Position numbers and translations under genes: made by a program. Below the pieces are notes generated by a model. It was not told where the DNA came from, did no database searches, and was given only the letters and a program-made list of their open reading frames with translations. Shown in pieces: positions 20,798-40,898 of a DNA stretch of 53,538 nucleotides. This DNA comes from a virus (taxonomy: Duplodnaviria; Caudoviricetes). The stretch lies in IMG/VR virus record IMGVR_UViG_3300025833_000212, positions 1-53,538 of that record; one strand, 5' to 3'. The number at the start of each line of letters is the position of its first letter. The stretch's first letter is position 1.

Positions 20798-20839
20798 CGG
20801 AAAACACGCCAAAAAATGGGCATGGCGGCATCCTACGAT
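20798..20839 (+). promoter_or_regulatory. putative late promoter 5 (leaderless darA transcript)
   Basis: CGGAAAACAC + 26 nt + TACGAT; ATG at 20847, 7 nt after the -10. Confidence 0.7.
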
Positions 20840-20846
20840 GACCGCC

Positions 20847-23800
20847 ATGCCCATTCACATTTCTGAGGTCCAAGCCATGCACCCACAACGCTACTGGAGT
20901 GCCGATGCGCTTCCTGTCGGCCAAACCATTGACCAACTGCTGTACGAGATTCGCTGCTCTGACCATGGAGACAACCTGATGCTTGATGGCGTCACGCTGG
21001 CCGACATCATGGAAGACTCAGACGGCACCGTGGCGCTTGACGCCATGGTGGCGCCCTTTGCTTCCCTGAATCGCAAGATGGAAGCGTTGCAGCGTGTCAT
21101 GGAGCGCACCAGCGGCACAGTCAAGCCCGTGGCCATGCAGGTCACAGACCCGTTCACCCAGCGCGGCGTGGCCAACGTGGCAACCATCTTTGAGCTGTCG
21201 GATGGCCAGACGGTATCGATCTATTTTCACAACCCGGACGTGACCCCCAAAAAGATGATGGGCACGGACGAAGTGATCTCGTGGAAGTGGCTGCTGAACA
21301 AGAAGGACATCACGATTGTGGTGGCCCCTGAGCGTGGCAGTGACCTCAACATCAACGAAGTGGCTCGGCGCATCATGAAGCTGGCCGAAAAGAACAGCGC
21401 GGCATTCCAGCGCGTAAACGCCAAAAAGGCTGAATCCATGCAGCGCCTGGGCAACTTGAAGACTGAAATTGCCGGGCTTGAAAAGGAACTCAAAACGGTG
21501 CAGGATGAGCTGGGCGTTGCGCAGATGCAGGCCGAAGAGCGTGCGGCATCCAAAGATTCACGCGAGGCTCTACTGGCAGCCCAAAAGGCCGCGCGTGAGG
21601 CTGAGCTGGCTACCCGTGTGGCGCTGTATGACATCGGCAATACCAACACGAAAACAGGGCGCTGGAACAAGAGTGGCGGGCAACTGATTGTCAGTAGCGC
21701 CGAAGGTGGCTTATACAAGTGGGTGTTTGAGGACGTGGTTCAGCGCACCATCACCAACACTGTCGAGGCGGCTTTTGAATGGCTGGGCGGCGTGCTGATG
21801 GGCATGGGTGAGGCGGAGCTGAGCCGCGAGCAGGTGCTGAGCCGTTTGAAGTTCAAAGATGGGACGGACTTGCTGGGCGCCACCCCATCAGTTGCATTGC
21901 CGGACGCACGCGGGGCCAACACTCTTTTGAATGAATACCAGGCGCTGAAATCACAAAATCCAGAGGCGCTTCTTGCGCACCGGGTGGGTGACTTTTACGA
22001 GCTCTTTGAACAGGACGCAAAAACGGCAGCATCATCTTTGGAGTTGACGCTTACCTCAAGAAACGGCACCCCGATGGCAGGTTTCATGTTTCATGCATTG
22101 GAGCAGAACCTAGCCAGTTTGGTCAAAAATGGATTTTCAGTTGCGGTTTCTGAGCGGGATGAGAGTGGCGTGTCTAGCATTGCAAGAATTGTCAAGCCTG
22201 AGTCGGTATCGCCTTCCGCTGCGCCTGTGGCTAGCGATGGTGGCGGTAGCGACAACTACGCATGGGCAGAAAAAGACATTGGCTACGCACCAAACCGCCC
22301 AAAAGGCAAGTTTTATATGCTGGTTTCCAAATCCGATTCAGCTATTGCATCTGCATTCGGCGCCGCACCAAAATACAGCGACATGGTGCAGTATTTCGCT
22401 ACGCCGGAAGATGCAGGCGTTTGGGCGAATGCAAATGGGTATGTGTTTGGGCCTAATCCGTATGTCGAAGTTGTGCCAGATATTCTTTCAGAAGAAGAAC
22501 TTTCTGCCAAGGCTTTAAAGGTTCAAGACTACGTCGAAAAAGTTATTGCCGGGACCACAAAACTCAACAAAGTTGATATTGGCGTGATTTGCACCAGTGC
22601 AGCCGACAAGATCATTGCAGTAACGGGATTGCCGGCACATTCAGCCATGGAAGTGATTATTGCTGATCGCGTAATTCACGCCACAAACAGGCATCCAGAT
22701 TTAACCAATGAAGACTGGGGCAGGCTGCCAAAATTGACAAACCAATTTGATGAAGTGGCGCTAGGCGAGAAAAATATAAATCCTGACCTGACCAGCATCG
22801 TTGTGAGGAAATCCTTCCCCGACGGAGAGGGGTTTGGCGCTGTTCTTGCGTTTGCTCAAGGCAAAGGCAAGAAGCGACTTAACCTGGTCACGTATTTCAA
22901 AGGTCGCGGTAAGAGCCTTGATGCATGGTGGGAAAAGAATAAGGGCCTTAACCCCCCCACTGTCCCGAACCACCCGGAACCTGCGTCTAGCGCCCATGAG
23001 GGTCTGTTAAAGCCCTTGGGGGAAACTGTACCCGCTCCAGCCGAGCCTGTCAACCCCGGCGCAGCCAGCACCAAAGAATCCCTGATCGAAGCCTACAAAG
23101 CCGCGTGGCAGACCGAGGCCGACAAGCTCAACGCACTGGTGGCCAGCGTGAACTGGGTGGGCATCACAGATGAAGCCAGTGGCAAATCCGAGATCACTCG
23201 CTTGTATGCCGAGTTGAAGAACACCAAAGACATTGCAGCAGCGCGCCAAGCCTTTGAGAACGCCGGATACAAAAACTGGAATGACCTACCCAATATGGAT
23301 GATGTTCCTGGGTATCGGGCGCACAGCGATGCCATGGATGCATTCCGGGACCTGAACCAAAAAATCAGCGACGCCATCAAAGACGCCACCAAAAAACAAG
23401 GGAAAGCCGACTTTGCGAACCTGCCAGCCAATGCGCCCATTGAAGACATGGCTCAGGTGGTGTACCGCAAGCATGGTATCGAGACCACTGGACGGAACGA
23501 CTATTTTGAAAAGATCATCCTGGCCATCAAAGACAAAGATGCTGAGGTCTTGCAAGGCGTGTTTGGCGGTGTTGGCAGCAACAACAACCTGGCTAGCATG
23601 GAGGTGTTTGAGCGCGCTACCGGGTTGAAGTTGGCCAACACGCAAAAAGCGCGTGCATTGCAGATTGACGCATGGGCAGACATCACCCCTGAGGCACGGG
23701 CACAGATCGAGGCTGACAAAGACGCCGCCTGGCAGGCCAAAGAGCTGATGGAGGCCGTTAAGGACAAATGGAACTACCTGACCTCATTCACCATTTACGG

Positions 23801-26800
23801 CAATGACCACATTGTGTTGAATGGCCAGCAGTGGGTGCTTGATCTGGCGTCCGAAGGGAAAACAGAGATCAAGACGTTTAAAAAAGGAGCCGTTCCCGTT
23901 TATGGATTGGGTCTCCCGGGTGGTAGCGAAATCAATCATGCAAAAAGCAAGACGGTAACTGACTTCTTCCGGGTGGCACAAAAGTTCGGCGGCCTGTTGC
24001 CAGCGCTGGCACTGGTTGGGGCGGTCGTCCCCGAGCCAAAGGCGCCAGTTGACAACACAATCCAAATGAAAGACGTGTACGGCGTGGATTTGAGCGTTGA
24101 CAAAGCCCAGTATGCCCGCGAGAGCGTTCAACCGGCTTGGCTCATCCCTGTGGACGTGGGCGGCGCGCCTGATGGCGACTACTACGCCCAGGAGCTTTCT
24201 GTGTTGCGCTATGGTTCATCCCTGATCTACCGCGCCGATGGCTCTGTGATGCTGGAAAAAAGCAAGACCGGGCAAGGCGACTTGGGCGGCGATGCCGATG
24301 CGTTCAGAACATTTTTGGCAAAGCCCAAGGGAATGACCGAAGACCAGTTCAAACTGGCCCAATACAAGCAGCTTCGCCTCGACCTGGACAGCGGCATGCA
24401 AAAGCCTGCACAGATCATTGGCGGCGGGCACAAAAATGCCAGAAAAGACGCTGAAAAGTACCTTGATGACCGCATTGCTGAATATGAGGGCAAGGTGGCT
24501 GATGGTGTGCCGATTGAGTTGACCGGCAAGGAGCTGGGGGACTTTCCGGATACCGAGCAAGGGCTTGTTTCCCTTCGCGCTGCGGCTGTTGCAGTCTACA
24601 AAAAAGACTTGGAATCAATTGACGGAGTGACCAATGTGGCTTTGAACAAGTTGGTGGCATTTGATGGCACAGGGCGCGACAAGATCGAATCTTTTAGCGC
24701 GGACCCCAGAAAGCTCCACCTGGTGGCAAAGTTGGGATCTATTGTGCGAGACGGCAAACCAACACCCATAAGCCCAATGCAGCCCCATGGAAAGTCGGCG
24801 CTCAAAGGCGTCAAGCTGGTGCATGTGCTTAAAACCCCCGTAAAGCTCGCAGGGGAAAGCATCAAAGTTAGATTCTTGGTTTACGAGAAGGCCGATGGAA
24901 ATCTTTTTTACGACCACAGCGTGGACAACAGCGAAGTAAAGGCAGCGATGGGTGGAAATGCGGAGGTGCTGGATTCAGCCGAAGCCGCTGATCTGAACCT
25001 TCCCGCCCTGCTCTCAAATGAGCCGTCATTCGAGCACCGCTGCGTGGAAAGTGTAGGCGATGATTTAGAAAACGTCAACGCCTACAGCGATTTTGACGAA
25101 TCAGAGGTGGGCGAGGTCTTCATGGCTGAAGAAACCACACTGGATTCAGCCACTGGCAGCCAGATGGTGTTCAACCTGTTCATTGAGGGCGAAGCGCCCG
25201 AGGTGGTGGAGTTTGAAGATGATGCGCCTGTGGCGCCGGTGGCGCCTGTGGCAGAGCCGGTTGCAACGACGCCAACAGCCCCCCTTGATGAAATCAAGTG
25301 GAAGAGACTGAAGGCCGACATCGTGGGCAGCATTTCAGCCATCGCAGCCATTGACAAAGGCCTGTCACCAGGTATGGACCGCTCCCTGTTTGTCAGCAGC
25401 ATTGCGGGCAAGATTCGGCGCAGCAATGACCGAGGCGAGACGGCCATGGCGGGCACTGCGCTGGCTTTTGTCGAGCGTGCGCAGCAGTCCATGCCCAAGC
25501 CTGCCTTCGCGCCATCCAACAAGATTTGGACAGAGGTGGATTGGATGCCGTTTGCGGCGCAGTTTGAACCTGTGAAGGCTGAACCCAGTTCAGCGCCAGC
25601 AACACCAACCCCCAAGACCCTAAGTGAGTTGCTGGATGCTGCAGGTCTGCAGGCGGTTGAGCTAAAAACTGACCTGAAGCGCGACAAGCGACTCATGATC
25701 TCGCGCAAAAGCAGTCCATCCGGAGATGGTGTCATCTTGAGGGTGTCTGGCGGTCAATATGTGATTTCGCAGAGCAGTTCTGATGCGAGCTTGAACGCCG
25801 CAGTCGGTGGAATTGTGGCTAGCATTCGTGAATTAAGCATGGGTGAACAACTGAATGCGGCCGAGAAAACATCCTCCCAGACACAGTACGACGCAGCCCC
25901 GTTCAGGGTGATTCCGGCATCCGTGGCAAATCGCCAGCTCTCAGAATTTGAAGGGCAAGACTTGGCTTTCGCGCAGGGCATGTTGAAGAGTGATAAGCCA
26001 TTCAGTGGAAAGCTCCGCATGAAGCGCATGGGCGGCGAGCGGCGTGAAATGTTCGAGGTGTCCCTGATTATTCGCGGCCAAACGCCATCTAAAGTCACCA
26101 GGCTTAGCGAAAGCAGCACCATTGAGGAATTGGCCGAACTGATCGCTTTGGATATGGATTCGCTGAAATTGGATTTCTCCACCCTATCCGATGATGTCGA
26201 GACGCCAGCAGCACCCGGCGCGCCAGTTGCGCCAGAACCCATTCCGTCAGCTACACCGAACGCCTCAACTGCCATATCTGAAGCCATTGATGCTGCCATT
26301 GACAGCATTGGAAATTCAGTTGCAACGGGTGACGGTTTGACTTGGGCTGTCAGCAAGGCTTCTTTGCAAAAGATGATCGCCAAGACAAATGCGGATGGCG
26401 ACAAGCCGTATCAGAAAGAGCGAATCATCGCCATCCAGCACCTGAAGGAAATTGCCGCATCAACCAAAACGCCGGTGATCCGGGAAGACGATGGCCGGGA
26501 CCCGCAAGTTGAAGCCGTCTATGAGTACAACACCAATTTCACCGTGCTTGACGCAGTGCGCGGTGTTCGGCTGCTCTGCAAGAAATTCAAAACACCCACA
26601 AAGAACATGAAGGACAAGATGCACAGCATGGCTATGGATGAAGCAAAAGGCCCCGCCAATCTTATTGACACTGACGGGATGTTGTTTGACCTAGCAATCT
26701 TTGAAAGTGAATTCAAAGGGGGGGATGGGGCACGGCCGGTGTCTGAACAACCAGTACCCCCCTCAGTCAGCAACGATTTGAATTTAGGCGAAATCGGTGC

Positions 26801-27023
26801 AAAAGTCAATGCCGACAAGGAATCTGACCAAATGACCGCCGACAAAGCCCTGTTCCAGTCCGTCATCGACGGCAGCGCCCCTGACCTGATCGAACCTGAT
26901 CTGGCCGACAAACTGGAGGCGGCCTACAACCGTCATATCGGCAACACAGACATGGAAGCCATGTTTGAGATGGCCGTGAATGCCTACGGTGAAGCCAGTC
27001 TTGCCGCCTCTGCTGATCTGTAA
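20847..27023 (+). CDS. darA: DarA-like large polyvalent virion protein (DarA_N, MutS-I-like, PBECR-like, two LPD3-like domains, DarA_C)
   Basis: FELSDGQTVSIYFHNPDVTP...WKWLLNKKDITIVVAPERG (DarA_N); YQALKSQNPEALLAHRVGDFYELFEQDA (MutS-I, ~21920-22200); HATNRHPDL..EDWGRLP...NLVTYF (~22530-22940); VTNVALNKLVAFDGTGRDKI...FYDH (~24510-24920); VSKASLQKM...AIQHLKEI...VRLLCK..MHSM (~26270-26640); ADKALFQSVIDG...FEMAVNAY (DarA_C). Confidence 0.7.
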   Translation: MPIHISEVQAMHPQRYWSADALPVGQTIDQLLYEIRCSDHGDNLMLDGVTLADIMEDSDGTVALDAMVAPFASLNRKMEALQRVMERTSGTVKPVAMQVTDPFTQRGVANVATIFELSDGQTVSIYFHNPDVTPKKMMGTDEVISWKWLLNKKDITIVVAPERGSDLNINEVARRIMKLAEKNSAAFQRVNAKKAESMQRLGNLKTEIAGLEKELKTVQDELGVAQMQAEERAASKDSREALLAAQKAAREAELATRVALYDIGNTNTKTGRWNKSGGQLIVSSAEGGLYKWVFEDVVQRTITNTVEAAFEWLGGVLMGMGEAELSREQVLSRLKFKDGTDLLGATPSVALPDARGANTLLNEYQALKSQNPEALLAHRVGDFYELFEQDAKTAASSLELTLTSRNGTPMAGFMFHALEQNLASLVKNGFSVAVSERDESGVSSIARIVKPESVSPSAAPVASDGGGSDNYAWAEKDIGYAPNRPKGKFYMLVSKSDSAIASAFGAAPKYSDMVQYFATPEDAGVWANANGYVFGPNPYVEVVPDILSEEELSAKALKVQDYVEKVIAGTTKLNKVDIGVICTSAADKIIAVTGLPAHSAMEVIIADRVIHATNRHPDLTNEDWGRLPKLTNQFDEVALGEKNINPDLTSIVVRKSFPDGEGFGAVLAFAQGKGKKRLNLVTYFKGRGKSLDAWWEKNKGLNPPTVPNHPEPASSAHEGLLKPLGETVPAPAEPVNPGAASTKESLIEAYKAAWQTEADKLNALVASVNWVGITDEASGKSEITRLYAELKNTKDIAAARQAFENAGYKNWNDLPNMDDVPGYRAHSDAMDAFRDLNQKISDAIKDATKKQGKADFANLPANAPIEDMAQVVYRKHGIETTGRNDYFEKIILAIKDKDAEVLQGVFGGVGSNNNLASMEVFERATGLKLANTQKARALQIDAWADITPEARAQIEADKDAAWQAKELMEAVKDKWNYLTSFTIYGNDHIVLNGQQWVLDLASEGKTEIKTFKKGAVPVYGLGLPGGSEINHAKSKTVTDFFRVAQKFGGLLPALALVGAVVPEPKAPVDNTIQMKDVYGVDLSVDKAQYARESVQPAWLIPVDVGGAPDGDYYAQELSVLRYGSSLIYRADGSVMLEKSKTGQGDLGGDADAFRTFLAKPKGMTEDQFKLAQYKQLRLDLDSGMQKPAQIIGGGHKNARKDAEKYLDDRIAEYEGKVADGVPIELTGKELGDFPDTEQGLVSLRAAAVAVYKKDLESIDGVTNVALNKLVAFDGTGRDKIESFSADPRKLHLVAKLGSIVRDGKPTPISPMQPHGKSALKGVKLVHVLKTPVKLAGESIKVRFLVYEKADGNLFYDHSVDNSEVKAAMGGNAEVLDSAEAADLNLPALLSNEPSFEHRCVESVGDDLENVNAYSDFDESEVGEVFMAEETTLDSATGSQMVFNLFIEGEAPEVVEFEDDAPVAPVAPVAEPVATTPTAPLDEIKWKRLKADIVGSISAIAAIDKGLSPGMDRSLFVSSIAGKIRRSNDRGETAMAGTALAFVERAQQSMPKPAFAPSNKIWTEVDWMPFAAQFEPVKAEPSSAPATPTPKTLSELLDAAGLQAVELKTDLKRDKRLMISRKSSPSGDGVILRVSGGQYVISQSSSDASLNAAVGGIVASIRELSMGEQLNAAEKTSSQTQYDAAPFRVIPASVANRQLSEFEGQDLAFAQGMLKSDKPFSGKLRMKRMGGERREMFEVSLIIRGQTPSKVTRLSESSTIEELAELIALDMDSLKLDFSTLSDDVETPAAPGAPVAPEPIPSATPNASTAISEAIDAAIDSIGNSVATGDGLTWAVSKASLQKMIAKTNADGDKPYQKERIIAIQHLKEIAASTKTPVIREDDGRDPQVEAVYEYNTNFTVLDAVRGVRLLCKKFKTPTKNMKDKMHSMAMDEAKGPANLIDTDGMLFDLAIFESEFKGGDGARPVSEQPVPPSVSNDLNLGEIGAKVNADKESDQMTADKALFQSVIDGSAPDLIEPDLADKLEAAYNRHIGNTDMEAMFEMAVNAYGEASLAASADL
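22932..23017 (-). ncRNA. putative antisense small RNA 1 embedded in darA after the PBECR-like domain
   Basis: 12-bp terminal stem AAGGGCUUUAAC/GUUAAGGCCCUU (23017-23006 / 22952-22941), internal hairpins, 3' AUUCUUUU. Confidence 0.6.
23025..23053 (-). promoter_or_regulatory. antisense sigma70 promoter for sRNA 1
   Basis: TTGACA (23053-23048) - 17 nt - TACAGT (23030-23025). Confidence 0.7.
24934..25043 (-). ncRNA. putative antisense small RNA 2 embedded in darA after first LPD3-like domain
   Basis: 9-bp terminal stem GCAGCGGUG/CAUCGCUGC, internal hairpins CUCGAAUGA-CGGC-UCAUUUGAG and UCAGC-GGCUUCG-GCUGA, 3' CUUUACUU. Confidence 0.6.
25050..25078 (-). promoter_or_regulatory. antisense sigma70 promoter for sRNA 2
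   Basis: TTGACG (25078-25073) - 17 nt - TACACT (25055-25050). Confidence 0.7.
26645..26774 (-). ncRNA. putative antisense small RNA 3 embedded in darA after second LPD3-like domain
   Basis: GGGGGGU/AUCCCCC stem, CUUUGAA/UUCAAAG hairpin, terminator-like CCCGUCAGU/AUUGGCGGG + GCCUUUU. Confidence 0.55.
26781..26809 (-). promoter_or_regulatory. antisense sigma70 promoter for sRNA 3
   Basis: TTGACT (26809-26804) - 17 nt - TAAATT (26786-26781). Confidence 0.7.
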
Positions 27024-27037
27024 CCGGGATACCCACC

Positions 27038-30000
27038 ATGAACACGATGACTATGATTTTTGACAAAGCCGCCAATGGCCTGAGCCCATTGGAAAAAATG
27101 AAACTGATTCGCAGCCTGAATATGGTGCGCACCGACATTGCGGCCGTGGGCGCGGGCGCATTGGCCGCCATGAAAAAACTCAAACTGCTCTCGAACCTGA
27201 ATCATATCCGCGTGCAGCTTGGTTCCACCAAGAATTTAGAGCCAAACAAGCCTCTAGCCCCCGTGGATACTGCGCAAGCAGCTACTAATTTAATATCAAG
27301 TGAACAGGAAACAAAAAGTGTTGAAACCAAAGAAACCCCTCAAGCCGTCAAAACAGAAACGCAAGGACAGCCATCACCCGTCGCCGATATTTCAGCCCCA
27401 GACCCGGTAAAGAAATCAGCCAGTAAGCGCCAAAAAGACAACAACGCCGCCATCGATGCGCTGCGCAAGGTCAAGTCCGGTGAGGCTGATGCCAAAGACC
27501 CGGCCATTCGTGAAGCTCTCAAAGGCTACAGCGGCAGCGGCGGCGGCCTGAAGACAGCGCAAGGCACATCGGGCAGCCCGCATGAATACTACACACCCGC
27601 GCCGGTGGCCAAAGCCATGTGGAACATGCTCGACGGGCTTGGTTTTTCCGGTGGCAAGGTGCTTGACCCCAGCTCCGGCATGGGTGTGTTTGCGCGCACC
27701 AAGCCTGACAACGTGGCGATTGAGCAGATTGAACTGGATTCAATTTCAGGAGAGATCAATGGACTACTCAACGACGGCCCCACGGTATCGACCCGCGTGG
27801 CCTCGTTTGAAGAGGTGGCCGCCAGCACCGACGATGAAACCTTTGATGCGGTGGTCACCAATGTGCCGTTTGGCGACAAGGCCATGCGCGGCGCCCACTG
27901 GCGCAAAGACAAAAAGTACCAGAACGCCAACTTGCAGGAATACTTCATCCTGCGCGGCCTGGAGAAAATCAAGCCCAGCGGCTTCGCGGCCTTCATTGTG
28001 CCGCCGTCCGTAGTAGCGGGTAAAGGTGGCAAGGGCGTGGCGCTGCGCAACAACGTGTCGATGGCAGCCGAGTTTGTGGGCGCCTACCGCCTGCCCAACG
28101 TGGTGTTTGATGAAGCCGGGGCAGACACCATTACCGACATCATCATCCTGCGCAAACACAGCAAAGACAACAAGGCCAAGATTGACGAACTAGCCCAGCA
28201 AAATGCCGCGCTGTTGACCCAGACCAATGTGATCTGGCCTGACTTTGTGGAGGGCAACTACTTCAAGCTTGACGGCAAGCGGTTCCAGATTGGTGAATCC
28301 ACGGTAGGCAAGGGCCGCTTTGGTGAGGTCGAGAAGGTGGCATTCACCGGGTCCATCGGCTCCATTGCGGCACTGCTCAAACCGTTCCCCAAAGCCAGCC
28401 GGATTGATTGGGCCATGCTGGGGGCTGTGGAGACGGTGCCCATTGTCTACGCCGAGGGTGACACGGTGTTCTCTGGTGGCGCTATGTTGCAAATGACCGA
28501 GGGCAAGCTGGTGCCGGTCGAGGGCGGTCTGACCAATGACGATGCCGAGGCTGTCAACCTGATGGCTCGGTTCACATCGCCACTGGATGCAATCAACCAA
28601 GGCTTGACCTTCGACGATGCCAGCCGAGCGCTGACCAATGAAGAAACCTGTGGTCGCTTAGGCTCAGTGTCGCGCTGGATTGTGTCGGCTCAACGTGCCG
28701 CCCATGCAGCCGCCAAAAATCAGGGCGAATGGTTTGACGCCATCATGGCTGGCATGGCTGTGCAAGAGTTCGCCCAGTCCGGCAACAAGGAGGCTCTGAA
28801 CTATGCCGCCGACTACCCGGAGCTGAGCAAGGTGCTGGCTCGCGTGCAGGGCTATGCCAGCAAGCGCGCTGGAGTGGGTGGTGAGGTGGTGGCCGAGGCG
28901 CTGCAAAACATTGCCGTGGCACGCAAAAAAGGCGTGTTCACACCCTGGTGGACTGGCAACGTGGCCAAAGATGCCACACTGGTGCTCACGGTCAACCAGT
29001 CGTATGCCAAGATCAAGTTAGAGAGCGAAGATGAAACCGGTTATGTGCCTGCGGCTGAGATGCGCCAGGCCTTTGCTGATTTTGACCCGCTCAACGATGA
29101 CGCCTGGTGCGTGTCGCCGGATGGCTCTGGCGTCATGAGCGCTGACGATTACTATTTTGGCAACTACGCTGAGTTTCTTGCGCGCGCCCAACAGGAGCTG
29201 AGCGAGGCCACTGACCCGGCGATCAAAGAAAAGCTGTTGCGCCAGCACGCCAAGGCATCCGAGCGCATCACCCTGGTGAACCCGTCGCGCATGAAGTTTT
29301 CACTGGAGACTGCGTTTGTGTCAGACGCAGAGAAGGCCGAATTCATCAAGCAGTACGTGTCTGAAAACATTCAGGTGGGCATGGACGCTAATGGCAAGCC
29401 CAAGTTCAGCTACGAGGGCAAGGCGCCCGACAAATATACCTCTGCTGATGAAGTGCGCCGCATCAAGACGCTGCGCCGCTTCGCCATCTACCTCAACAAC
29501 AAGACCATCACCACCGGCAGCGGCGACCGGGCGCTGGACGACCCCAAAGAAGAGCAGGCTTTGCTGGACTCGATCAAGGCCATGGTCAACGCCAGCACGG
29601 CACAGTTTGACGCTTGGTGCAAGTCCAATGAGGACATTGCCAGTGGCATCAGCCGCCGCATAAACGCGCCCGAGAATCTGCGCTTTGTCGAAGTGCCCGA
29701 TTACGCCCCGGTGGACATCCCTAACTGGAACCCGGCCTGGGTGCCACACGGCTACCAGTATGCAGCGGTGCGCCGTTATGCCAAGCGTTTTTCAGGCATT
29801 TTGGCGCTGGACGTTGGGCTTGGCAAGGCGCAACCACTTGATTCAAAAATCCTGACCCCCGATGGATGGAGGCAAATGGGTGACATGCGTGTTGGAGATA
29901 TGGTCATTTCTGTTGACGGCATCGCTGTTCCGGTGACCGGAGTTTTTCCGCAAGGCGAGAAAGAAATATTTGAAGTCGAGTTCAGCGACGGATCAAAAAC

Positions 30001-33000
30001 AAAATGCTGCGATGAACACTTATGGGAAACCCAAACTGAGACAGATCGCAAGAATGAACGCTATGCCAAGCGTAATGGCAATGACCGAGTGATCAATGGT
30101 ACGGTCAAGTCACTGCATGAAATTCGTGAAACACTCATTTACCAAACCCAAAAGAACCACAAAATCCCGATGGTGTCCCCTGTTCAATTCCCCGAACAGG
30201 CTTTGCAAATCCACCCGTATTTGATGGGTGTATTGCTTGGAGATGGGAGTTTGTCACACGGATCGGTGTCATTCACAAAAAACGATGCAGAAATACCAAG
30301 CCGCATTTGCCACTTACTAAAAGATGGGTTTGGAGATGCGGTTGAGTTGCGAAAAATGGCAGTAGGCGAGAGGTGTGATTCATGGAGAATCAGCCGGACA
30401 GCAATCGGTGGGTTAAACCCAGTCAGATCAATGCTTGATGATTTTGGGCTGATGGGAACAAAGTCGGATACGAAGTTCATACCGAAGCAATACCTAATTG
30501 GATCAGTCTCGCAGCGCATTGAATTGCTGCATGGCCTCATGGATACCGATGGGTACGTGAGTAAAGACGGCATGACCGTTCAGTTCTCAAGCACGTCAAA
30601 AATGCTTTCTGATGGTGTTGTTGAGTTGGTGCAGAGCCTTGGTGGAATCGCGTGGACAACCTTCAAAACGCCGACTTTCACCTACAAAAATGAGAAAAAG
30701 GAAGGCAAGTTGGCTTACACGGTATCCATGCGTATGCCAAGCGATATCAATCCGTTTTTACTGGAGAGAAAAGCCAGTTGCGTCAAGGCAAAATCAAAAT
30801 ACATCCCGGTAAGGTATTTCACCGCAGTGCGCGAAGTGGGCAAAGCTCAGGCTCAGTGCATCAGTATTGATCACCCGACACACCTTTATGTGACGGATGA
30901 CTACATCGTCACCCACAACACCCTTACAGCATTGGCCGCAGTGCAATACGCCCAAAGCATTGGCTCCAAAAAGAAAACTGTGTTTGTGGTGCCAAACTCA
31001 GTGTTGACCAACTGGAAAAAAGAGGCCGGCAAGGCGTACCAGGACACCAGCGACTGCTTGTTTGTGGGTCTGCAGGTGGACGACAAGGGCAAAGCCAAAT
31101 ACAGCTCCAAGGCAGCCACGGACGACCTGAACACCATTCGGGAAAACCGCCACAGCAAGATTTTCATGACCTACGAGACACTGACACGTATCCCGCTGCG
31201 CGAAGACACCTTGCAGGCCTACAAGGACTACCTGTTGGCCAATGACGATTCTTTTTCCAAACAGGCCGAAGAGGGCGCTAACGAGAAGACCCGCGACAAA
31301 ATTTCAGCCGAGCAGGCTGTGGCCAATGCGATTGAATCCGGTTCCAAGGCGGGTAACGTGCCTTTTTTTGAGGACATGGGCATTGATTCGATCATCGTGG
31401 AGGAGGCCCACAGTTTCAAGAATTCAAAGAAGGCCAGCAGCGAATTCAAGGCAACCCGCTTTGTCGCCAACCCTGAAAGCTCCAAGCGCGGCATGGACAT
31501 GCAGGCCAAGTGCTGGTACATCCGGGGTATGTCGGGCAGCGGTGACGGGGTGCTGGGGTTAACTGCCACTCCGGTGACTAACTCACCCAGCGAGATTTAC
31601 AGCATGATGGCGCTGACCATTGGCGAAAAAGAAATGAACGCCATGTGCGGCTGCACCGGCACTGACTCGTTCATGATGAACACCTGCGACATTGAAAACC
31701 GCGAAGAAGACGACCTGACCGGCGCACCAAAGAGCCAGCGCACCCTCAAAGGCATTGCCAACCTGGATATTTTGCGCCGGGTGCTGGATTCGGCCGCCAT
31801 GATTGAAACCCCGGAGACAGTGGCCGCCAAGGGCATCATCATCGAAGTGCCAGAGGCCGAAGAAGCCATGTCGAGCGTGGAAATGTCGCCGGTAGACGCC
31901 GCCATTCTCAAAGACATCAAGGACGCCTACTTGGAGGCATCTTCGCTGAAAAAGGCTAGGGTCAAGCTATCCCCCAAAGAGGCCATCATGGCGTCGCCGT
32001 TTAACGCGATTCGTAACATGACCAAGCTGATCACCGACAAGGAACTGTACCAGGGCAAGTTCCTGTTTGGGTTTGACGCCAAAGAGCAAGCCAAAGCCGA
32101 GGCTGTGGTGGCTGCATTCAACAAGCTCAAGATCACCGAGGAATGCAAAGAGTACGAGTTGCCGTTTGGCATCGACACCACGGGCATGAAAGCCAAGATG
32201 GTGACCGACAAGGAGTCCGGCAACGAGGCCATGATTTTCTATGTGCCGGTGCTAGCTTCGATTGAAGACGGCAAGATCGTCCTGCCAGCGGTTGACTACC
32301 AGACACACGACCGCTTCATGACCCTGGTCAACAAGTCCGGCTTGGGCCTGACGGCTAACGCCAGCCCCAAGACGCAGGCGCTGCTGGCCAACCTGCAAAA
32401 GGAAAACGCCAGCCCACGCTGGAAGCCCGCTAAGCAGATCGTTTTTTGCGACGAACTGGCGCTGCACCACAAGCTCAAGTTGTTGATTACGGCTGAAACA
32501 GGCATCCCTAGCGGGAAAATTTGCATCGTCAACGCCAAGTCGGTGTCACCCGATGAAATCCAGAACGTGCAGGACGGCTTCAACGCCAACGAAGATGATA
32601 ACCAGTACCAGATCATCATCGCCAACAAAAAGGCCGAAGTGGGTATCAACCTGCAAAACGGCACACAGGCCATTCACCACCTGACGATTGGCTGGACGCC
32701 TGATAGCATTCACCAGCGCAACGGGCGCGGCGTTCGCCAGGGCAACAAGGTGGAAACCCCCATCATGATCTACCACTACGAGGCCAACGGCACCTTTGAT
32801 GCCTACAAGCGCCGGCTGGTGAGCGTGAAGGGCGACTGGATCAAGAGCCTAATGGACAAGGACGCAGAAAATGTGGCGATTGAAGGCGACTTGTCCGCTG
32901 AAGACTACGCCCGCATGACCTCGCTGGTGGGAGACTCGGACGCCATGGCACAGTTTAATTCGGACATGGCAAAAAAAGCCAAGGCGCAAGTGGCACAGTC

Positions 33001-35062
33001 GGCCAAGATCACCCAGGTCAACTCGCTGTCGGTGGCTATGGGGCAACAAAAGTGGCTCGACAAGTTTGAGAATGACAGCGCCGGGTTCACGGCATGGGTC
33101 AAAGCCAAAGTGGTGGCATCCAGCCTGATTGCTGACGAAATTGAAAAGCTGTACCAGCGCGCGCAAAAGACCGAATCAACCGACGTGGCCAACCGCTGCA
33201 ATGCAAAAATTTCCGAATTGAACACCAAGCGCTTGGCCATTGATGCACTGTACGCAGGCATTGACAATGCCGACAACAAGTGGTTAAACGTAACGGCATC
33301 AAAGTTCCCAGACACGGCAGCCGTAGCCAACTGGACTAAAGACGTGGCCATCAACCGCAAGATGCTCGACGAAGCCAATGCCGCGTGCCTGACCCGTGTT
33401 ACGCATGGCTACAGCAAGGAAACGCTCGACAAGGTGGCGTCCAAAGAGGCGGTTCTGATGGGCGGCAAGATTCTGGCTGCTGGTGACTTTGTGATTGCAG
33501 ACGGCAAGCCGGGTGTTTTGAAAATGATTCAGCAGCGTGGAAGCTCCGGCCTGTCGTTGGTATACCAAGACGATCAAGGTGGACTTGAAATTAGCCAGGT
33601 GGCTGGAATGTCAATCACGATGCACGGGACGCAAGGCAGTGAAGATCGCGCCGAGATTCTTAAAATGCTGGTGAATTTGGATGAAGACCAGATCAAGGCA
33701 AGCAATACCGGTAATCTTTTCGCGTACCAGTCGATGGATGTGCGCAGAGCCCTGCGCAGCGTGATTCCTTCGCGTCAAATAAGCTTTGACGGTCGATTTG
33801 GCCGCGATGAAGATTGCTGGGTGGCTGCACCTCACTTCCCTGTGGTGATGCCGCCAGATGCGGAAGGCCCGTTCTGTGCGCGCATCGTGGCCGAGCAGTC
33901 CAATCTGATAGAGTTCAGTTCCAGCGGCTGGCAGAAGACATTCCGCTTCAAGGATTCGCGCAACCAGGGCGAAGGCAATGGGCGCGAGGCATGGCAGGCT
34001 GTGGCAGGGTGGATGACGGCCAACAGCCAGACCATGACCATGCAGGAAGTGGTGGGGCTTGACAGCACCAACATGTTTCAGACGGATTTAAGAAATGCCT
34101 TTTCGGGCGCGCTGGACGCCATGGTGGCAACCTGCACTAATCTGGCCGAACTGGACGCCGCCATGGTGGCCTGGGCCAGTGCAACCTATCCGTGGGTGGG
34201 TGGGTTTGATGCCAGCATGGTTGAAGCTTTCAATCTGGAGCGCTTTGTTAACAAGGCCAAAGCCGAGCTTGATGATGGGTCGGTGAAATACGACGTGGTC
34301 GTTGACGGCTACAGGTTTAACACTAGTCCACTGCCAGCGTCTACTAGGGCCATACACGCCGCCATTGTGGCCGCGTTCGCAGCCGGAGCGCTGAATGCCG
34401 AGATGGACAAATTAAATGAGAAAGTTGGTGGACGCTATGGTGCCAGCTTGTATGCCGTGACAACTTACGGCAACTCGCCCGAGCTGGTGGCCAGCTACAA
34501 GCAAGTGATTTTGGATGCCATTGGAGGCCAGGAGGATGGCGATCTGATCAACATGGCTGAGTCGCCGTTTGCCGAACTGATGCGGGCTGATTACAAGATG
34601 GGCAAGGGCGCAGTGGTTAAGTTGAACTGGGATTGCCTGAACTCACCAAGCCGCTACATCGACGGGCTGCAAGATGCCATCAACGCCTACGCCATCAAGC
34701 AAAAGCAGGCGGGTATGGGCTTGGATGTGGATGGCCTGCTGGCACAAATCAGCAACGTGGCAGGCGTGGCATCGGCCAAGGTGGGCATGGTCAACCACGC
34801 CAAGGTGCGCGACAAGTACACCGGATCACACCTTTACAAGGCGGGCGAGTACATCCGGCTGCTGCTGCCTCGTGGCGGCGACTTGAATGCGCGCTTTGCC
34901 AATAAGGTAACAGGCTTGCAAGGGCGCGCCTTTGATGATCGAGCCAAAGAGTTTTTGGTGAGCTTAGTGCCAGCCAAATTCAGCGACGGCAAAGATGTTG
35001 CTGATGTGATTGCTCTTGCGCGATACTTGTCCATCGACCCAACACCCTACAAAAAAGGCTGA
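27038..35062 (+). CDS. darB: DarB-like N6-methyltransferase / SF2 (SNF2-like) helicase fusion, intein-containing
   Basis: EYYTP, VLDPSSGMG, VVTNVPF (MTase); ALDVGLGK|T, IIVEEAH, LTATP, QRNGRGVRQGN (helicase). Confidence 0.8.
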   Translation: MNTMTMIFDKAANGLSPLEKMKLIRSLNMVRTDIAAVGAGALAAMKKLKLLSNLNHIRVQLGSTKNLEPNKPLAPVDTAQAATNLISSEQETKSVETKETPQAVKTETQGQPSPVADISAPDPVKKSASKRQKDNNAAIDALRKVKSGEADAKDPAIREALKGYSGSGGGLKTAQGTSGSPHEYYTPAPVAKAMWNMLDGLGFSGGKVLDPSSGMGVFARTKPDNVAIEQIELDSISGEINGLLNDGPTVSTRVASFEEVAASTDDETFDAVVTNVPFGDKAMRGAHWRKDKKYQNANLQEYFILRGLEKIKPSGFAAFIVPPSVVAGKGGKGVALRNNVSMAAEFVGAYRLPNVVFDEAGADTITDIIILRKHSKDNKAKIDELAQQNAALLTQTNVIWPDFVEGNYFKLDGKRFQIGESTVGKGRFGEVEKVAFTGSIGSIAALLKPFPKASRIDWAMLGAVETVPIVYAEGDTVFSGGAMLQMTEGKLVPVEGGLTNDDAEAVNLMARFTSPLDAINQGLTFDDASRALTNEETCGRLGSVSRWIVSAQRAAHAAAKNQGEWFDAIMAGMAVQEFAQSGNKEALNYAADYPELSKVLARVQGYASKRAGVGGEVVAEALQNIAVARKKGVFTPWWTGNVAKDATLVLTVNQSYAKIKLESEDETGYVPAAEMRQAFADFDPLNDDAWCVSPDGSGVMSADDYYFGNYAEFLARAQQELSEATDPAIKEKLLRQHAKASERITLVNPSRMKFSLETAFVSDAEKAEFIKQYVSENIQVGMDANGKPKFSYEGKAPDKYTSADEVRRIKTLRRFAIYLNNKTITTGSGDRALDDPKEEQALLDSIKAMVNASTAQFDAWCKSNEDIASGISRRINAPENLRFVEVPDYAPVDIPNWNPAWVPHGYQYAAVRRYAKRFSGILALDVGLGKAQPLDSKILTPDGWRQMGDMRVGDMVISVDGIAVPVTGVFPQGEKEIFEVEFSDGSKTKCCDEHLWETQTETDRKNERYAKRNGNDRVINGTVKSLHEIRETLIYQTQKNHKIPMVSPVQFPEQALQIHPYLMGVLLGDGSLSHGSVSFTKNDAEIPSRICHLLKDGFGDAVELRKMAVGERCDSWRISRTAIGGLNPVRSMLDDFGLMGTKSDTKFIPKQYLIGSVSQRIELLHGLMDTDGYVSKDGMTVQFSSTSKMLSDGVVELVQSLGGIAWTTFKTPTFTYKNEKKEGKLAYTVSMRMPSDINPFLLERKASCVKAKSKYIPVRYFTAVREVGKAQAQCISIDHPTHLYVTDDYIVTHNTLTALAAVQYAQSIGSKKKTVFVVPNSVLTNWKKEAGKAYQDTSDCLFVGLQVDDKGKAKYSSKAATDDLNTIRENRHSKIFMTYETLTRIPLREDTLQAYKDYLLANDDSFSKQAEEGANEKTRDKISAEQAVANAIESGSKAGNVPFFEDMGIDSIIVEEAHSFKNSKKASSEFKATRFVANPESSKRGMDMQAKCWYIRGMSGSGDGVLGLTATPVTNSPSEIYSMMALTIGEKEMNAMCGCTGTDSFMMNTCDIENREEDDLTGAPKSQRTLKGIANLDILRRVLDSAAMIETPETVAAKGIIIEVPEAEEAMSSVEMSPVDAAILKDIKDAYLEASSLKKARVKLSPKEAIMASPFNAIRNMTKLITDKELYQGKFLFGFDAKEQAKAEAVVAAFNKLKITEECKEYELPFGIDTTGMKAKMVTDKESGNEAMIFYVPVLASIEDGKIVLPAVDYQTHDRFMTLVNKSGLGLTANASPKTQALLANLQKENASPRWKPAKQIVFCDELALHHKLKLLITAETGIPSGKICIVNAKSVSPDEIQNVQDGFNANEDDNQYQIIIANKKAEVGINLQNGTQAIHHLTIGWTPDSIHQRNGRGVRQGNKVETPIMIYHYEANGTFDAYKRRLVSVKGDWIKSLMDKDAENVAIEGDLSAEDYARMTSLVGDSDAMAQFNSDMAKKAKAQVAQSAKITQVNSLSVAMGQQKWLDKFENDSAGFTAWVKAKVVASSLIADEIEKLYQRAQKTESTDVANRCNAKISELNTKRLAIDALYAGIDNADNKWLNVTASKFPDTAAVANWTKDVAINRKMLDEANAACLTRVTHGYSKETLDKVASKEAVLMGGKILAAGDFVIADGKPGVLKMIQQRGSSGLSLVYQDDQGGLEISQVAGMSITMHGTQGSEDRAEILKMLVNLDEDQIKASNTGNLFAYQSMDVRRALRSVIPSRQISFDGRFGRDEDCWVAAPHFPVVMPPDAEGPFCARIVAEQSNLIEFSSSGWQKTFRFKDSRNQGEGNGREAWQAVAGWMTANSQTMTMQEVVGLDSTNMFQTDLRNAFSGALDAMVATCTNLAELDAAMVAWASATYPWVGGFDASMVEAFNLERFVNKAKAELDDGSVKYDVVVDGYRFNTSPLPASTRAIHAAIVAAFAAGALNAEMDKLNEKVGGRYGASLYAVTTYGNSPELVASYKQVILDAIGGQEDGDLINMAESPFAELMRADYKMGKGAVVKLNWDCLNSPSRYIDGLQDAINAYAIKQKQAGMGLDVDGLLAQISNVAGVASAKVGMVNHAKVRDKYTGSHLYKAGEYIRLLLPRGGDLNARFANKVTGLQGRAFDDRAKEFLVSLVPAKFSDGKDVADVIALARYLSIDPTPYKKG
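27235..27298 (-). repeat. palindromic element copy D, in-frame within darB
   Basis: reverse complement TGATATTAAATTAGTAGCTGCTTGCGCAGTATCCACGGGGGCTAGAGGCTTGTTTGGCTCTAAA; encodes LEPNKPLAPVDTAQAATNLIS. Confidence 0.7.
29828..30919 (+). mobile_element. class 3 intein with LAGLIDADG homing endonuclease (364 aa) in helicase Walker A
   Basis: GK|AQPLDSKILTPDGW...CCDEHLW...YLMGVLLGDG...LLHGLMDTDG...AQCISI...YIVTHN|T; lower GC than flanks. Confidence 0.9.
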
Positions 35063-35068
35063 GCCATC

Positions 35069-35452
35069 ATGACCGATGTTTACAAAATCCATCCCGCCTA
35101 TATGGCGGAACGGTTCTCTGATGTGGCCGCCAAGCTGGGTGATAAGCCTATGCTGGCCACGTTTTTGGAATCCACCCGCAAGATCATTGCTGTGCCGGGC
35201 AACTGGCGCCGGTACGGAGTGTATTGGTGGGCACTTAAGGCGGTATTGAAAATGAATGGCCTTGACCTTGGTGGTCAGGATTGCACTTGGTTGCGCGAGG
35301 AATACACCGTCAAAAGCCCCAAAGGCGTGATTGATCAGGAAAGCACGATTCTGGCTGCGTGGATTTTTGCCGAAGAAAACACGTTTAGCCCTGAAGTCGA
35401 GTTTGAAATTGATGATCAGGTGTGGTTGATCGATGACACGGATATGACGTGA
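35069..35452 (+). CDS. hypothetical protein downstream of darB
   Basis: 127-aa ORF, WRRYGVYWWALK motif. Confidence 0.55.
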   Translation: MTDVYKIHPAYMAERFSDVAAKLGDKPMLATFLESTRKIIAVPGNWRRYGVYWWALKAVLKMNGLDLGGQDCTWLREEYTVKSPKGVIDQESTILAAWIFAEENTFSPEVEFEIDDQVWLIDDTDMT

Positions 35453-35454
35453 TA

Positions 35455-35510
35455 GCTATAGTATTTATAGCTTCTTACGCACGTTTGATAAGGGCTAAAG
35501 GCTGATTTGC
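35455..35510 (+). repeat. palindromic element copy B between convergent genes
   Basis: GCTATAGTATTTATAGCTTCTTACGCACGTTTGATAAGGGCTAAAGGCTGATTTGC. Confidence 0.7.
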
Positions 35511-38391: not shown

Positions 38392-38426
38392 GGTGCTTGC
38401 TTGGTGGTGATTGGGCAAGTCTAGCC

Positions 38427-38468
38427 CGGAAAACACCCGCATTCTGAGGGTGTTGCGCTGCCTACTAT
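38427..38468 (+). promoter_or_regulatory. putative late promoter 6 (leaderless portal transcript)
   Basis: CGGAAAACAC + 26 nt + TACTAT; ATG 6 nt downstream, no RBS. Confidence 0.75.
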
Positions 38469-40040: not shown

Positions 40041-40896
40041 CAGCATCTCTGCTGGCATCGGCAGCCAGGCCAATGGCTTTGCGGGTCAGGTGTCAAGCGC
40101 ATTGGGCGGGGGCAGGGCGGCATCAGCGCTGGCAAAAGCCGGTGCCAACATGGGCGCCAGCGCAGCCATGGGGCTGGTAAACAACATTGTGCCAGCGGGC
40201 GTGCAGAAGGCACTCAATACCGGCGCTTCGATGCTGGGAGACATTCAGGCCGGGAACTTTGATGGCGCGGCCATGCGCCTGCTTGACGGTGGCTACCTTG
40301 ACAAACTCATTCCAGGAGCCAGCGGGGCGGCTTCTCAGCTGGCTTACTGGGGCACGCCAACGCCTCTGATGGGTGGCGTCACGCCCAAAGAAGCACAACA
40401 AATCCACGACGCTTTGCGCGGGCAGGGGCTGGCGAAGAAAAATCTGTGGATGCTGGAAGTGTCAAGCCAGCTGATGGGTAAGGACGCCTCGAAAGCGTTC
40501 AACATTTTGGCCACCGAGGTGGATTTTGCGCCCATGACCATCTCGGGCGACAAAAAGAAAATTGGCTCAGCCTCGGCAGACTGCGTGCAGTCTAGTGAGC
40601 CAGTGGAGTTGCGTGTTACCACCATGGACACCAAAGACGGCTTTATCAAGCGCTGGTTCCAGAGGCACTATGACGCTGTGGTGTCTGAGGACGGCACAGT
40701 AGGACATCCCTACAGCTACGCCATCAAGATCAAAATTGTTCACGCCTTCATCACTGATGCCAGCAACCGGGGTGGCTACGATGTGATGGGGTTGTACCGC
40801 CCCGCCAATCTTGAGATCAGCCTGTCGCGCCGGGAGGATGCCTTGCACGAGGTGCAAATGACGTTTACGCAACTAGACACTTTTATGAGACCTTGA
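40027..40896 (+). CDS. tail tube-like / baseplate protein
   Basis: Gly/Ala-rich N-terminus, C-terminal tube-like beta domain (VELRVTTMD...IKRWF...EVQMTFTQ). Confidence 0.5.
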   Translation: MGLFNSISAGIGSQANGFAGQVSSALGGGRAASALAKAGANMGASAAMGLVNNIVPAGVQKALNTGASMLGDIQAGNFDGAAMRLLDGGYLDKLIPGASGAASQLAYWGTPTPLMGGVTPKEAQQIHDALRGQGLAKKNLWMLEVSSQLMGKDASKAFNILATEVDFAPMTISGDKKKIGSASADCVQSSEPVELRVTTMDTKDGFIKRWFQRHYDAVVSEDGTVGHPYSYAIKIKIVHAFITDASNRGGYDVMGLYRPANLEISLSRREDALHEVQMTFTQLDTFMRP

Positions 40897-40898
40897 CC

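Follow-up and report, generated by a model that had tools for sequence, protein, structure and literature searches.

Polyvalent proteins are giant multi-domain weapons which are delivered into cells by phages and conjugative elements. One such protein, of DarA-like type and belonging to a P1-like prophage, is encoded in a DNA stretch of 53,538 nt from a virus of the Caudoviricetes (IMG/VR record IMGVR_UViG_3300025833_000212), which at its full length is called the window here. On the opposite (minus) strand, facing the linker that follows a PBECR3-like domain of this protein, lies a small element which is very probably a real structured RNA gene. Its paired body consists of 77 nt (23017-22941), and its helices are maintained through compensatory changes across seven independent loci. 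The element probably represents a new family of antisense small RNAs tied to the PBECR3-like domain. Antisense small RNAs are themselves known. The new feature would be that such an RNA, or an RNA antidote, is embedded against a linker between domains of a giant phage effector, and that it moves with one of these domains.

Fold, compensatory changes and strand of the RNA

A preliminary description of this DNA had claimed a 12-bp closing stem, a CCCUCAU/GUGGGGG helix and two small hairpins within 23017-22941. All of them are present letter for letter on the minus strand and fold as described. The topology is that of a closed Y, in which the closing stem, the inner helix and the two hairpins are nested and both the 5′ and the 3′ end are paired. 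The body has a minimum free energy of −36.3 kcal/mol, and none of 200 shuffles is as stable; its z-score of −3.25 carries the caveat that the 77 nt are a hand-picked stretch.

The comparison covers seven independent loci. They are the window, a genome contig (L004, 58% amino-acid identity to the window's segment), a viral contig (L002, 44%), one further viral contig of lower G+C (L015/L025, 41%) and three copies, L047, L048 and L050, which were found with a covariance model built from the first four loci (window, L004, L002 and L015). Pairwise identity inside the element is 72-86% between loci, and these are homologues, not assembly duplicates. Folded alone, L004 adopts the same four helices (−38.6 kcal/mol, z −3.56), and L015 forms the closing stem, the inner helix and hairpin 2 (−33.8 kcal/mol over 90 nt). 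In the closing stem of L015, 11 of the 12 pairs are formed once one arm is shifted by 2 nt. The inner helix changes from CCCUCAU/GUGGGGG in the window to UCGUCGC/GCGGCGG in L004 and CUGCUGG/CCAGCAG in L002, and its pairing is kept though the amino acids differ (PPT..HEG, PAA..RDD and PAG..ASS, respectively).

The first four loci were aligned by MAFFT, gap-free and unfitted to any structure, and the controls consisted of sliding the 3′ partners by 1-3 columns and of shuffles. In this alignment 86.2% of the pair cells are standard, as compared to 34.5-50.0% after sliding. Changes on both sides are found in 13 of the 29 pairs, against 1-5 after sliding and 6.0 ± 1.7 in the shuffles, none of which (0/500) reaches 13. 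RNAalifold, to which no structure was supplied, returns the same consensus for the four loci, with 28 pairs and both-side changes in 13 of them. Measured against the structure of the window, L004 keeps 28 of 29 pairs (5 double changes, 3 one-sided, 1 broken) and L002 keeps 27 (9 double, 3 one-sided, 2 broken); summed, the consistent changes amount to 14 double and 6 one-sided, and the disruptive ones to 3. When all seven loci are placed in an alignment fitted to the model, which favours the structure, 87.2% of the cells are paired (35.0-48.2% after sliding). Both-side changes then affect 16 of the 29 pairs in 27 cells, as compared to at most 7 pairs and 9 cells after sliding, and this is reached by none of 500 shuffles.

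Every helix takes part in this pattern. In the seven loci, pairs changed on both sides amount to 6 of 12 in the closing stem (84.5% of cells paired), 5 of 7 in the inner helix (93.9%) and 3 of 7 in hairpin 2 (85.7%). In hairpin 1 they are 2 of 3, and here a G-C pair has become A-U in L004 via two synonymous codon changes. What is expected of a structured RNA, namely that pairs are kept via compensatory changes in independent sequences, is therefore observed. In addition, all of the first four loci read GCAGG between the two hairpins and CA past hairpin 2, and one of these loci is non-coding there. DNA conservation is also at least as high in the element with its tail as in the adjoining domain (0.79 vs 0.57, 0.61 vs 0.55 and 0.58 vs 0.53).

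The minus strand is preferred by the pairs themselves. If the structure is mirrored on the plus strand, 74.1% of the cells are paired in the four loci instead of 86.2%, although 13 pairs with double changes are still present. In a tally of pair types, the minus strand has 16 G.U cells, each of which would be a C.A mismatch if read on the plus strand; the plus strand has 2. Moreover, folding the plus strand of the window gives nothing better than shuffles (z −1.82 over 77 nt, +0.29 over 91 nt).

A perfect −35 box had also been claimed, and TTGACA is indeed found at 23053-23048, ahead of a −10 box. This promoter match is rarer than a fold of such stability: in the whole window, both strands included, just 2 sites reach 10/12 (block shuffles 4.1 ± 2.2), and one of these two sites ends 7 nt ahead of the stem. 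The promoter scan also picks the site of L004 (9/12), which is the sole match in 1.1 kb where 0.3 are expected. A TAnAnT box lies 6-7 nt upstream of the first paired base in all seven loci, in L015 in its own stem register. The TTG of the −35 box is kept in 4 of the 7 loci, namely where the domain survives in whole or in part, and in 2 loci a TG stands at the extended −10 position. These promoter boxes sit in DNA whose protein reading is non-homologous between loci. At the other end, the sequence directly 3′ of the 77-nt body is AUUCUUUUCC, and the terminator scan places a terminator-like site at 22956-22941, with ATTCTTTTCC after it. All seven loci have a T-rich tract past the closing stem (4-9 T within the first 10 nt), and it persists in three orphan copies that lost the WWEKNK codons. 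On sequence alone, the element thus has what marks a cis-antisense small RNA, a promoter and a terminator of its own opposite a coding gene.

The element is present as a single copy in the window and in each genome or record; no further copy was found inside the window, and none of the repeat families of the window includes it. No open reading frame (ORF) on the RNA strand is conserved, and L015 is stopped in all three frames. A peptide encoded on the RNA strand was ruled out because the ORFs are not conserved. In four DNA runs, the segment 22500-23500 is free of variant letters, indels and joints; some contigs are broken close to the element, which is uninformative.

Link to the PBECR3-like domain, solo version and orphan copies

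In the window, L002, L004 and L015, that is in 4 of 7 loci, the element occupies the same register after the WW..NK motif which ends the domain. The preliminary description had placed the RNA behind a PBECR-like domain. Its position at the domain end is borne out at these four loci, whereas the identity of the domain is less firm, as the Pfam match to PBECR3 (PF18812) reaches 23.9 bits against a gathering cut-off of 30 (E 4e-5, profile positions 9-113 of 115). The homologue P0003 scores 23.6 bits for PBECR3, PF18812 is precomputed for P0004, and 2 of 8 cut domain segments match PBECR3 at E ≤ 0.01. The solo protein of L025 has no Pfam match. An AlphaFold2 model of the domain is of low confidence (mean pLDDT 60.2, pTM 0.60), and a Foldseek search of the PDB with this low-confidence model returned nothing at E ≤ 0.001.

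What stands downstream of the element varies. The window has an unassigned domain there, and L004 has PBECR1, LPD3 and an ART domain; in L009 a ddrB-ParB domain follows at a great distance, and in L025 there is a stop codon. The metagenome locus L009 was not counted apart because it is identical to L002 over 1231 nt; L013 is the contig of L002, and L025 that of L015. The domain of L004 is truncated at the N-terminus and lacks the conserved histidine position, yet the RNA fold is intact. The element is absent from G040, in which the downstream domain of the window stands behind a different partner with no PBECR-like domain. By their arrangement across the loci, the RNA gene and the end of the domain appear to move as one cassette.

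The PBECR-like protein of L025 comes from a solo 156-aa ORF which ends with ...EAWWQQNKKP*. Its stop codon falls within the 3′ part of the element, and the remaining element with the promoter is intergenic, ahead of a PmgG-like gene. Around it, the sheath, phrog_1053 and Hdf-like genes are arranged in synteny with the window. Since the solo protein ends before VPN..EPASSA while the nucleotides stay, the conservation of these residues may be imposed by the RNA. Nine further homologues, known from proteins alone, have a tail of constant length with VPN..EPASSA-like residues; the tails are compatible in length with the element, which is no test of the RNA.

As a separate observation on the same contig, ~1.1 kb upstream of the solo PBECR-like gene, L015:518-605 (minus strand) gives two matches to Rfam CRISPR-DR4 (49.1 and 35.0 bits, cut-off 35) which are 60 nt apart. 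This is a mini-array of two repeats, set between the phrog_1053 and Hdf-like genes of a phage contig.

No PBECR-like domain or ORF is detectable beside L047, L048 and L050. These orphans have surroundings that are poor in ORFs or unrelated, and one of them adjoins an integrase fragment; their similarity to each other and to the remaining loci is limited to the element (57-98 nt). With its solo, intergenic and orphan copies, the element is not a coding by-product. The G796 orphan lies within 2.3 kb without long ORFs, the site covering L051:5524-5946 (plus strand) and the ORF-poor stretch up to ~8226. The orphan is flanked by a 140-aa fragment that has only an integrase Arm DNA-binding domain and, on the other side, by sspB and a GST-like gene; the region looks like a decayed integrated island.

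The three orphans were scored by the covariance model at 85.2 (L047), 48.8 (L048) and 64.1 bits (L050), with rough E-values, and they are in genomes related to those of L004 and the window. Protein-guided searches gave 1, 1 and 2 relatives in viral contigs, 2 in genome contigs (one being the window's own sequence) and 1 in metagenome contigs, which is identical to L002. In a family sample, 2 of 401 genomes matched, namely the window's own and G040 (downstream domain only), and in an order sample the protein search matched 1 of 401, again the window's own. A search for relatives of the solo L025 protein returned only itself. No relative was obtained by blastn of 1401 nt against phage records, by tblastn of the domain with its tail against phage and plasmid records, or by blastn of 161 nt against plasmid records, and the model R2 gave no new match in a family sample of 151 genomes.

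The codon pattern of WWEKNKG was found at 4 loci in viral contigs, L013 being the sole relative. In L011 it lies within non-coding DNA, and in L010 and L012 it stands at the apparent domain ends of unrelated low-GC phage proteins (..KPEWWEKNKGMIENSE.., ..FTKWWEKNKGDNDVQK..), without the RNA element. The RNA-motif pattern hits 26 loci in viral contigs, and L025 alone passes the model. Two candidate copies were rejected, L011 (24.8 bits), which is a long hairpin terminator, and L012, the score of which is just 14.8 bits. L049/G824 scores 34.3 bits and forms an almost perfect hairpin of 25 bp. Its tail is similar, it lacks a PBECR-like neighbour, and it is kept outside the seven.

Comparable RNAs and candidate roles

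The idea that the RNA is a tRNA-sized decoy finds no support, because nothing tRNA-like is detected. ARAGORN reports 0 tRNA or tmRNA genes in 53538 bases, Rfam gives no tRNA at the element, and the closed Y is not a cloverleaf. As had been noted at the outset, canonical D and T loops and CCA are missing. The element resembles tRNAs in size, by its 77-nt body, and in having several helices; in tRNAs four arms stand round one junction, whereas its own helices are nested. More generally, Rfam 15 has no match at the element (E ≤ 10 in the window, E ≤ 5 in L015, L004 and L002). At E ≤ 10, the segment 21500-24500 contains two snoRNA-type chance matches, both off the element. Retron RNA, transposon guide RNAs and Y RNA were judged solely through this blank Rfam result, and no reverse transcriptase or similar gene is present among the annotated neighbours.

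The OOP RNA of phage lambda, 77 nt in length, is likewise a short phage RNA with its own promoter and terminator, opposite the 3′ end of a gene which is harmful if over-made. It is antisense to the 3′ end of cII and acts via RNase III cleavage (Krinke and Wulff 1987, 1990; PMC5869508). No similarity of sequence or model between the two RNAs was found, as Rfam has no match at the element, which differs from OOP in that it can lie midway in a 6.2-kb ORF, facing a linker, as well as by its closed Y fold, its travelling with one protein domain and its orphan copies. Another likeness is offered by the SPbeta pairs yonT/SR6 and bsrG/SR4, in which a convergent prophage antisense RNA overlaps the 3′ end of a toxin gene; SR4 governs both the decay and the translation of the toxin mRNA (PMC3834814). 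This type I layout is matched by L025, where a convergent RNA lies over the stop codon of the solo ORF.

By its position, the RNA is complementary to the mRNA of its putative toxin, as in type I systems, either at the 3′ edge of the domain or, in L025, at the solo stop codon. Type I toxins are mostly small hydrophobic or membrane proteins (PMC3919570), whereas the partner here is a predicted RNase-type domain of ~150 aa, usually fused into a giant protein (2061 aa in the window) and solo in the 156 aa of L025. Nuclease-type exceptions among type I toxins do exist. The antitoxins of type I and type III systems are both RNA, with a very different action (PMC4147584). A type III system of the ToxIN kind would be comparable in that an endoribonuclease toxin is countered by an RNA. 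ToxI-type antitoxins consist of tandem repeats which lie upstream of the toxin on the same strand and are processed by it, whereas the element is a single antisense copy on the 3′ side. The c4 antisense RNA of P1 and P7, which constitutes an Rfam family and lies in the P1 immunity region, is also a small, structured RNA with a regulatory role in phages of the P1 type; no Rfam family matches the element, which is found in the dar operon instead.

The role tentatively favoured for the RNA, by analogy with these systems, is that of an antisense antidote or regulator of the PBECR-like module, and it falls somewhat short of being probable. A sigma-70-type promoter would start a minus-strand RNA of ~85-90 nt at the foot of the closing stem, and this RNA would fold as a closed Y and end in the U-rich tail. 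It would then pair, with perfect complementarity, with the sense mRNA at the 3′ edge of the coding segment of the domain. The duplex would lead to cleavage or silencing of the sense mRNA, in the manner of OOP/cII or of the SPbeta type I pairs, and the effect would be to limit leaky or untimely production of an RNase-type module. This role is preferred because of the perfect complementarity to the mRNA at the 3′ edge of the domain, which is the layout of OOP/cII and of the SPbeta pairs.

Several observations weigh against a structured RNA gene at this place. The entire 122-nt span has a z of −1.29, with 22 of 200 shuffles equally stable. In a 77-nt scan of both strands (8910 windows of the scan), at least the stability of the body is reached at 19 distinct places, and the composition-adjusted z is equal or lower at 35. 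Since 19 places within 53.5 kb are equally stable, stability by itself is within chance. Promoter matches of 9/12 also occur near the chance rate (6 seen, 3.3 expected in 7.5 kb), L002 and L015 remain below this threshold, and the −35 boxes are poor in all three orphans; the promoter, start and end of the RNA are predictions, and among the listed sequencing runs which contain this DNA none is recorded as RNA. The seven-locus alignment owes part of its pairing to the model, the independent loci are only seven and several of them are related, and the shuffle control leaves this relatedness in. L048, with 5 non-standard pairs marked in the model alignment, may be decaying. A chance fold, in which the G-rich antisense of a proline-rich linker pairs beside a chance promoter match, was initially preferred from stability alone and was dropped once the homologous loci were compared. 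It is now very improbable, as it is the comparative evidence that lifts the observation above chance. Indeed, compensatory changes affect 16 of 29 pairs across seven loci with no equal in 500 shuffles, a model built from four loci found three further copies at 48.8-85.2 bits, and the element is conserved where it is non-coding. It is also improbable that the pairing serves the plus strand or the DNA, as a pause or processing site of the mRNA or as a DNA hairpin or recombination joint for domain shuffling. Watson-Crick covariation is blind to the strand, so that the mirrored structure retains its double-change pairs, and the site is a junction where the downstream domains differ among homologues. 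Against this stand the excess of minus-strand G.U pairs, a plus-strand fold of the window which does not surpass shuffles, the −10 box and T-rich tail conserved on the minus strand, and the persistence of the element without a long ORF.

With regard to the task of the RNA, some points count against an antisense action. The closed fold exposes only loops of 5-7 nt, which is less typical of fast-pairing antisense RNAs, and 3 of the 7 copies are without a detectable adjacent sense target. A role only in cis leaves the retention of these orphans unexplained, unless they are relics or act in trans. The partner, an RNase-type domain, is unlike most type I toxins, and its RNase nature is itself not secured, with a Pfam match below cut-off and an unconfirmed fold. 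An RNA that acts on the protein accounts better for part of these data. It would bind and neutralise the PBECR-like RNase domain or be cut by it, as a type III-like antitoxin, immunity factor or decoy, and this is unlikely at present. The compact closed fold and the many compensatory changes suggest that shape matters, GCAGG and the CA junction bases are invariant also where they are non-coding, and the location at the 3′ edge of a toxin domain, with which the element moves, is like that of immunity genes. Orphans without the domain also fit a protection in trans better than a cis-only antisense RNA. In such a case the RNA would protect the producer cell until packaging, and orphan copies in hosts would act against the injected effector. 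A dual-coding cassette, with a linker on one strand and an RNA gene on the other, which shuffles with the toxin domain, is to be held unlikely to the same degree. Conversely, type III antitoxins are upstream same-strand repeats, while here one antisense copy is downstream. The junction bases in fused proteins are also bound by V-P and P-A-S codons, P0006, P0008 and P0009 read TESSS at the junction, and the RNase assignment is below threshold. Finally, the small RNA may be real but have a task unconnected with the domain, for instance as a prophage RNA acting in trans on genes of the host or of competing phages, which is distinctly unlikely. In that event the junction would be occupied only because linkers tolerate an embedded gene. 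Orphans do persist in unrelated contexts where the element alone is conserved, and a sigma-70-like promoter could be active in a lysogen while the structural and late genes around it would presumably be silent. This is opposed by the identical codon register after WW..NK of one domain family in 4 of 7 loci and by G040, which has the downstream domain of the window and no element; nor was any target in trans found, though no search aimed at one was made.

How a producer cell tolerates the nuclease-type domains of polyvalent proteins is, as far as a term search of its text shows, not addressed in PMC5512222. In the main text of this survey, which defined polyvalent proteins and PBECR domains, the terms 'antisense', 'noncoding' and 'immunity protein' do not occur. 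A search of the full-text literature for antisense RNA with a polyvalent protein or darA yielded nothing relevant, most subscription journals being outside its scope. An RNA gene opposite an interdomain linker and co-inherited with the domain would give a concrete answer to the question of tolerance, and would also be a clean case of one DNA stretch under two constraints. If the RNA were directed at the protein, it would be the first RNA immunity factor for a toxin domain of a polyvalent protein. Covariance-model searches can, in addition, reveal relics of phage effector cassettes in host genomes which are missed by protein searches.

Sense gene and surroundings of the element

The coordinates of the element, its predicted signals and the sense gene are collected in Table 1. 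The codons opposite the element read KNKGLNPPTVPNHPEPASSAHEGLLKPLGETVPAPAEPVNPG, which is the proline-rich linker after the PBECR3-like domain. Besides the PBECR3 match below cut-off, Pfam finds DarA_N (66-187), MutS_I (363-443) and LPD3 (1245-1358) in the protein.

Table 1. Positions of the RNA element, its predicted signals and the sense gene in the window
Feature	Position	Strand	Remark
5′ arm of the 12-bp closing stem (AAGGGCUUUAAC)	23006..23017	-	pairs with GUUAAGGCCCUU
3′ arm of the closing stem (GUUAAGGCCCUU)	22941..22952	-	fold and covariation
5′ arm of the 7-bp inner helix (CCCUCAU)	22996..23002	-	pairs with GUGGGGG
3′ arm of the inner helix (GUGGGGG)	22954..22960	-	fold and covariation
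Hairpin 1 (GCG-CUAGA-CGC)	22983..22993	-	fold and covariation; weak in L015
Hairpin 2 (GUUCCGG-GUGGU-UCGGGAC)	22962..22980	-	fold and covariation
−35 box TTGACA of the predicted promoter	23048..23053	-	10/12 together with the −10 box; 17-nt spacer
−10 box TACAGT	23025..23030	-	10/12 with the −35 box; 7 nt ahead of the stem
Predicted transcription start	23016..23018	-	inferred from spacing, ~7 nt past the −10 box and at the base of the closing stem
U-rich tail AUUCUUUUCCCACCA, predicted terminator tract	22926..22940	-	antisense of the WWEKNK codons
Sense gene, ORF of the 2061-aa DarA-like polyvalent protein	20838..27023	+	element opposite codons 699-739
PBECR3-like (predicted RNase-type) domain, residues 590-694	22605..22919	+	ends with WWEKNK at the foot of the element

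The surroundings are those of a myovirus-type prophage with terminase, portal, sheath and baseplate genes, and the window shares synteny with the dar region of P1-like type. Directly upstream of the sense gene a small DarA_N protein of Hdf-like type is encoded, and directly downstream a 2674-aa methylase/helicase protein. The ATG of the DarA-like gene (20838) is straddled by a perfect 14-nt inverted repeat (20815-20828 with 20842-20855), and on either strand this repeat ranks with the most stable of the window's 77-nt folds.

The downstream DarB-like protein (27038-35062, plus strand) contains matches to LAGLIDADG_3 and Hom_end at residues ~1148-1232, between its N6_Mtase and SNF2/helicase parts; they may represent an intein. 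A 57-nt inverted repeat (84% complementary) joins 27228-27284 with 35763-35819, its arms being located near the start of this ORF and just past it. A 44-nt direct repeat (77%) is formed by 35466-35509 and 35761-35804 and adjoins the end of an MmeI-type gene. The latter (35512-38442, minus strand) lies between the Dar-like genes and the portal gene, and encodes a complete restriction-modification protein with all five MmeI domains. The window's second promoter-like site of 10/12 begins at 35433 (plus strand). Of all folds in the window, the most stable stands at 42106-42242 on the plus strand (to −49.8 kcal/mol per 77 nt, G+C up to 0.80), within a 995-aa ORF (40893-43880) that has tail-lysin and tape-measure-like matches.

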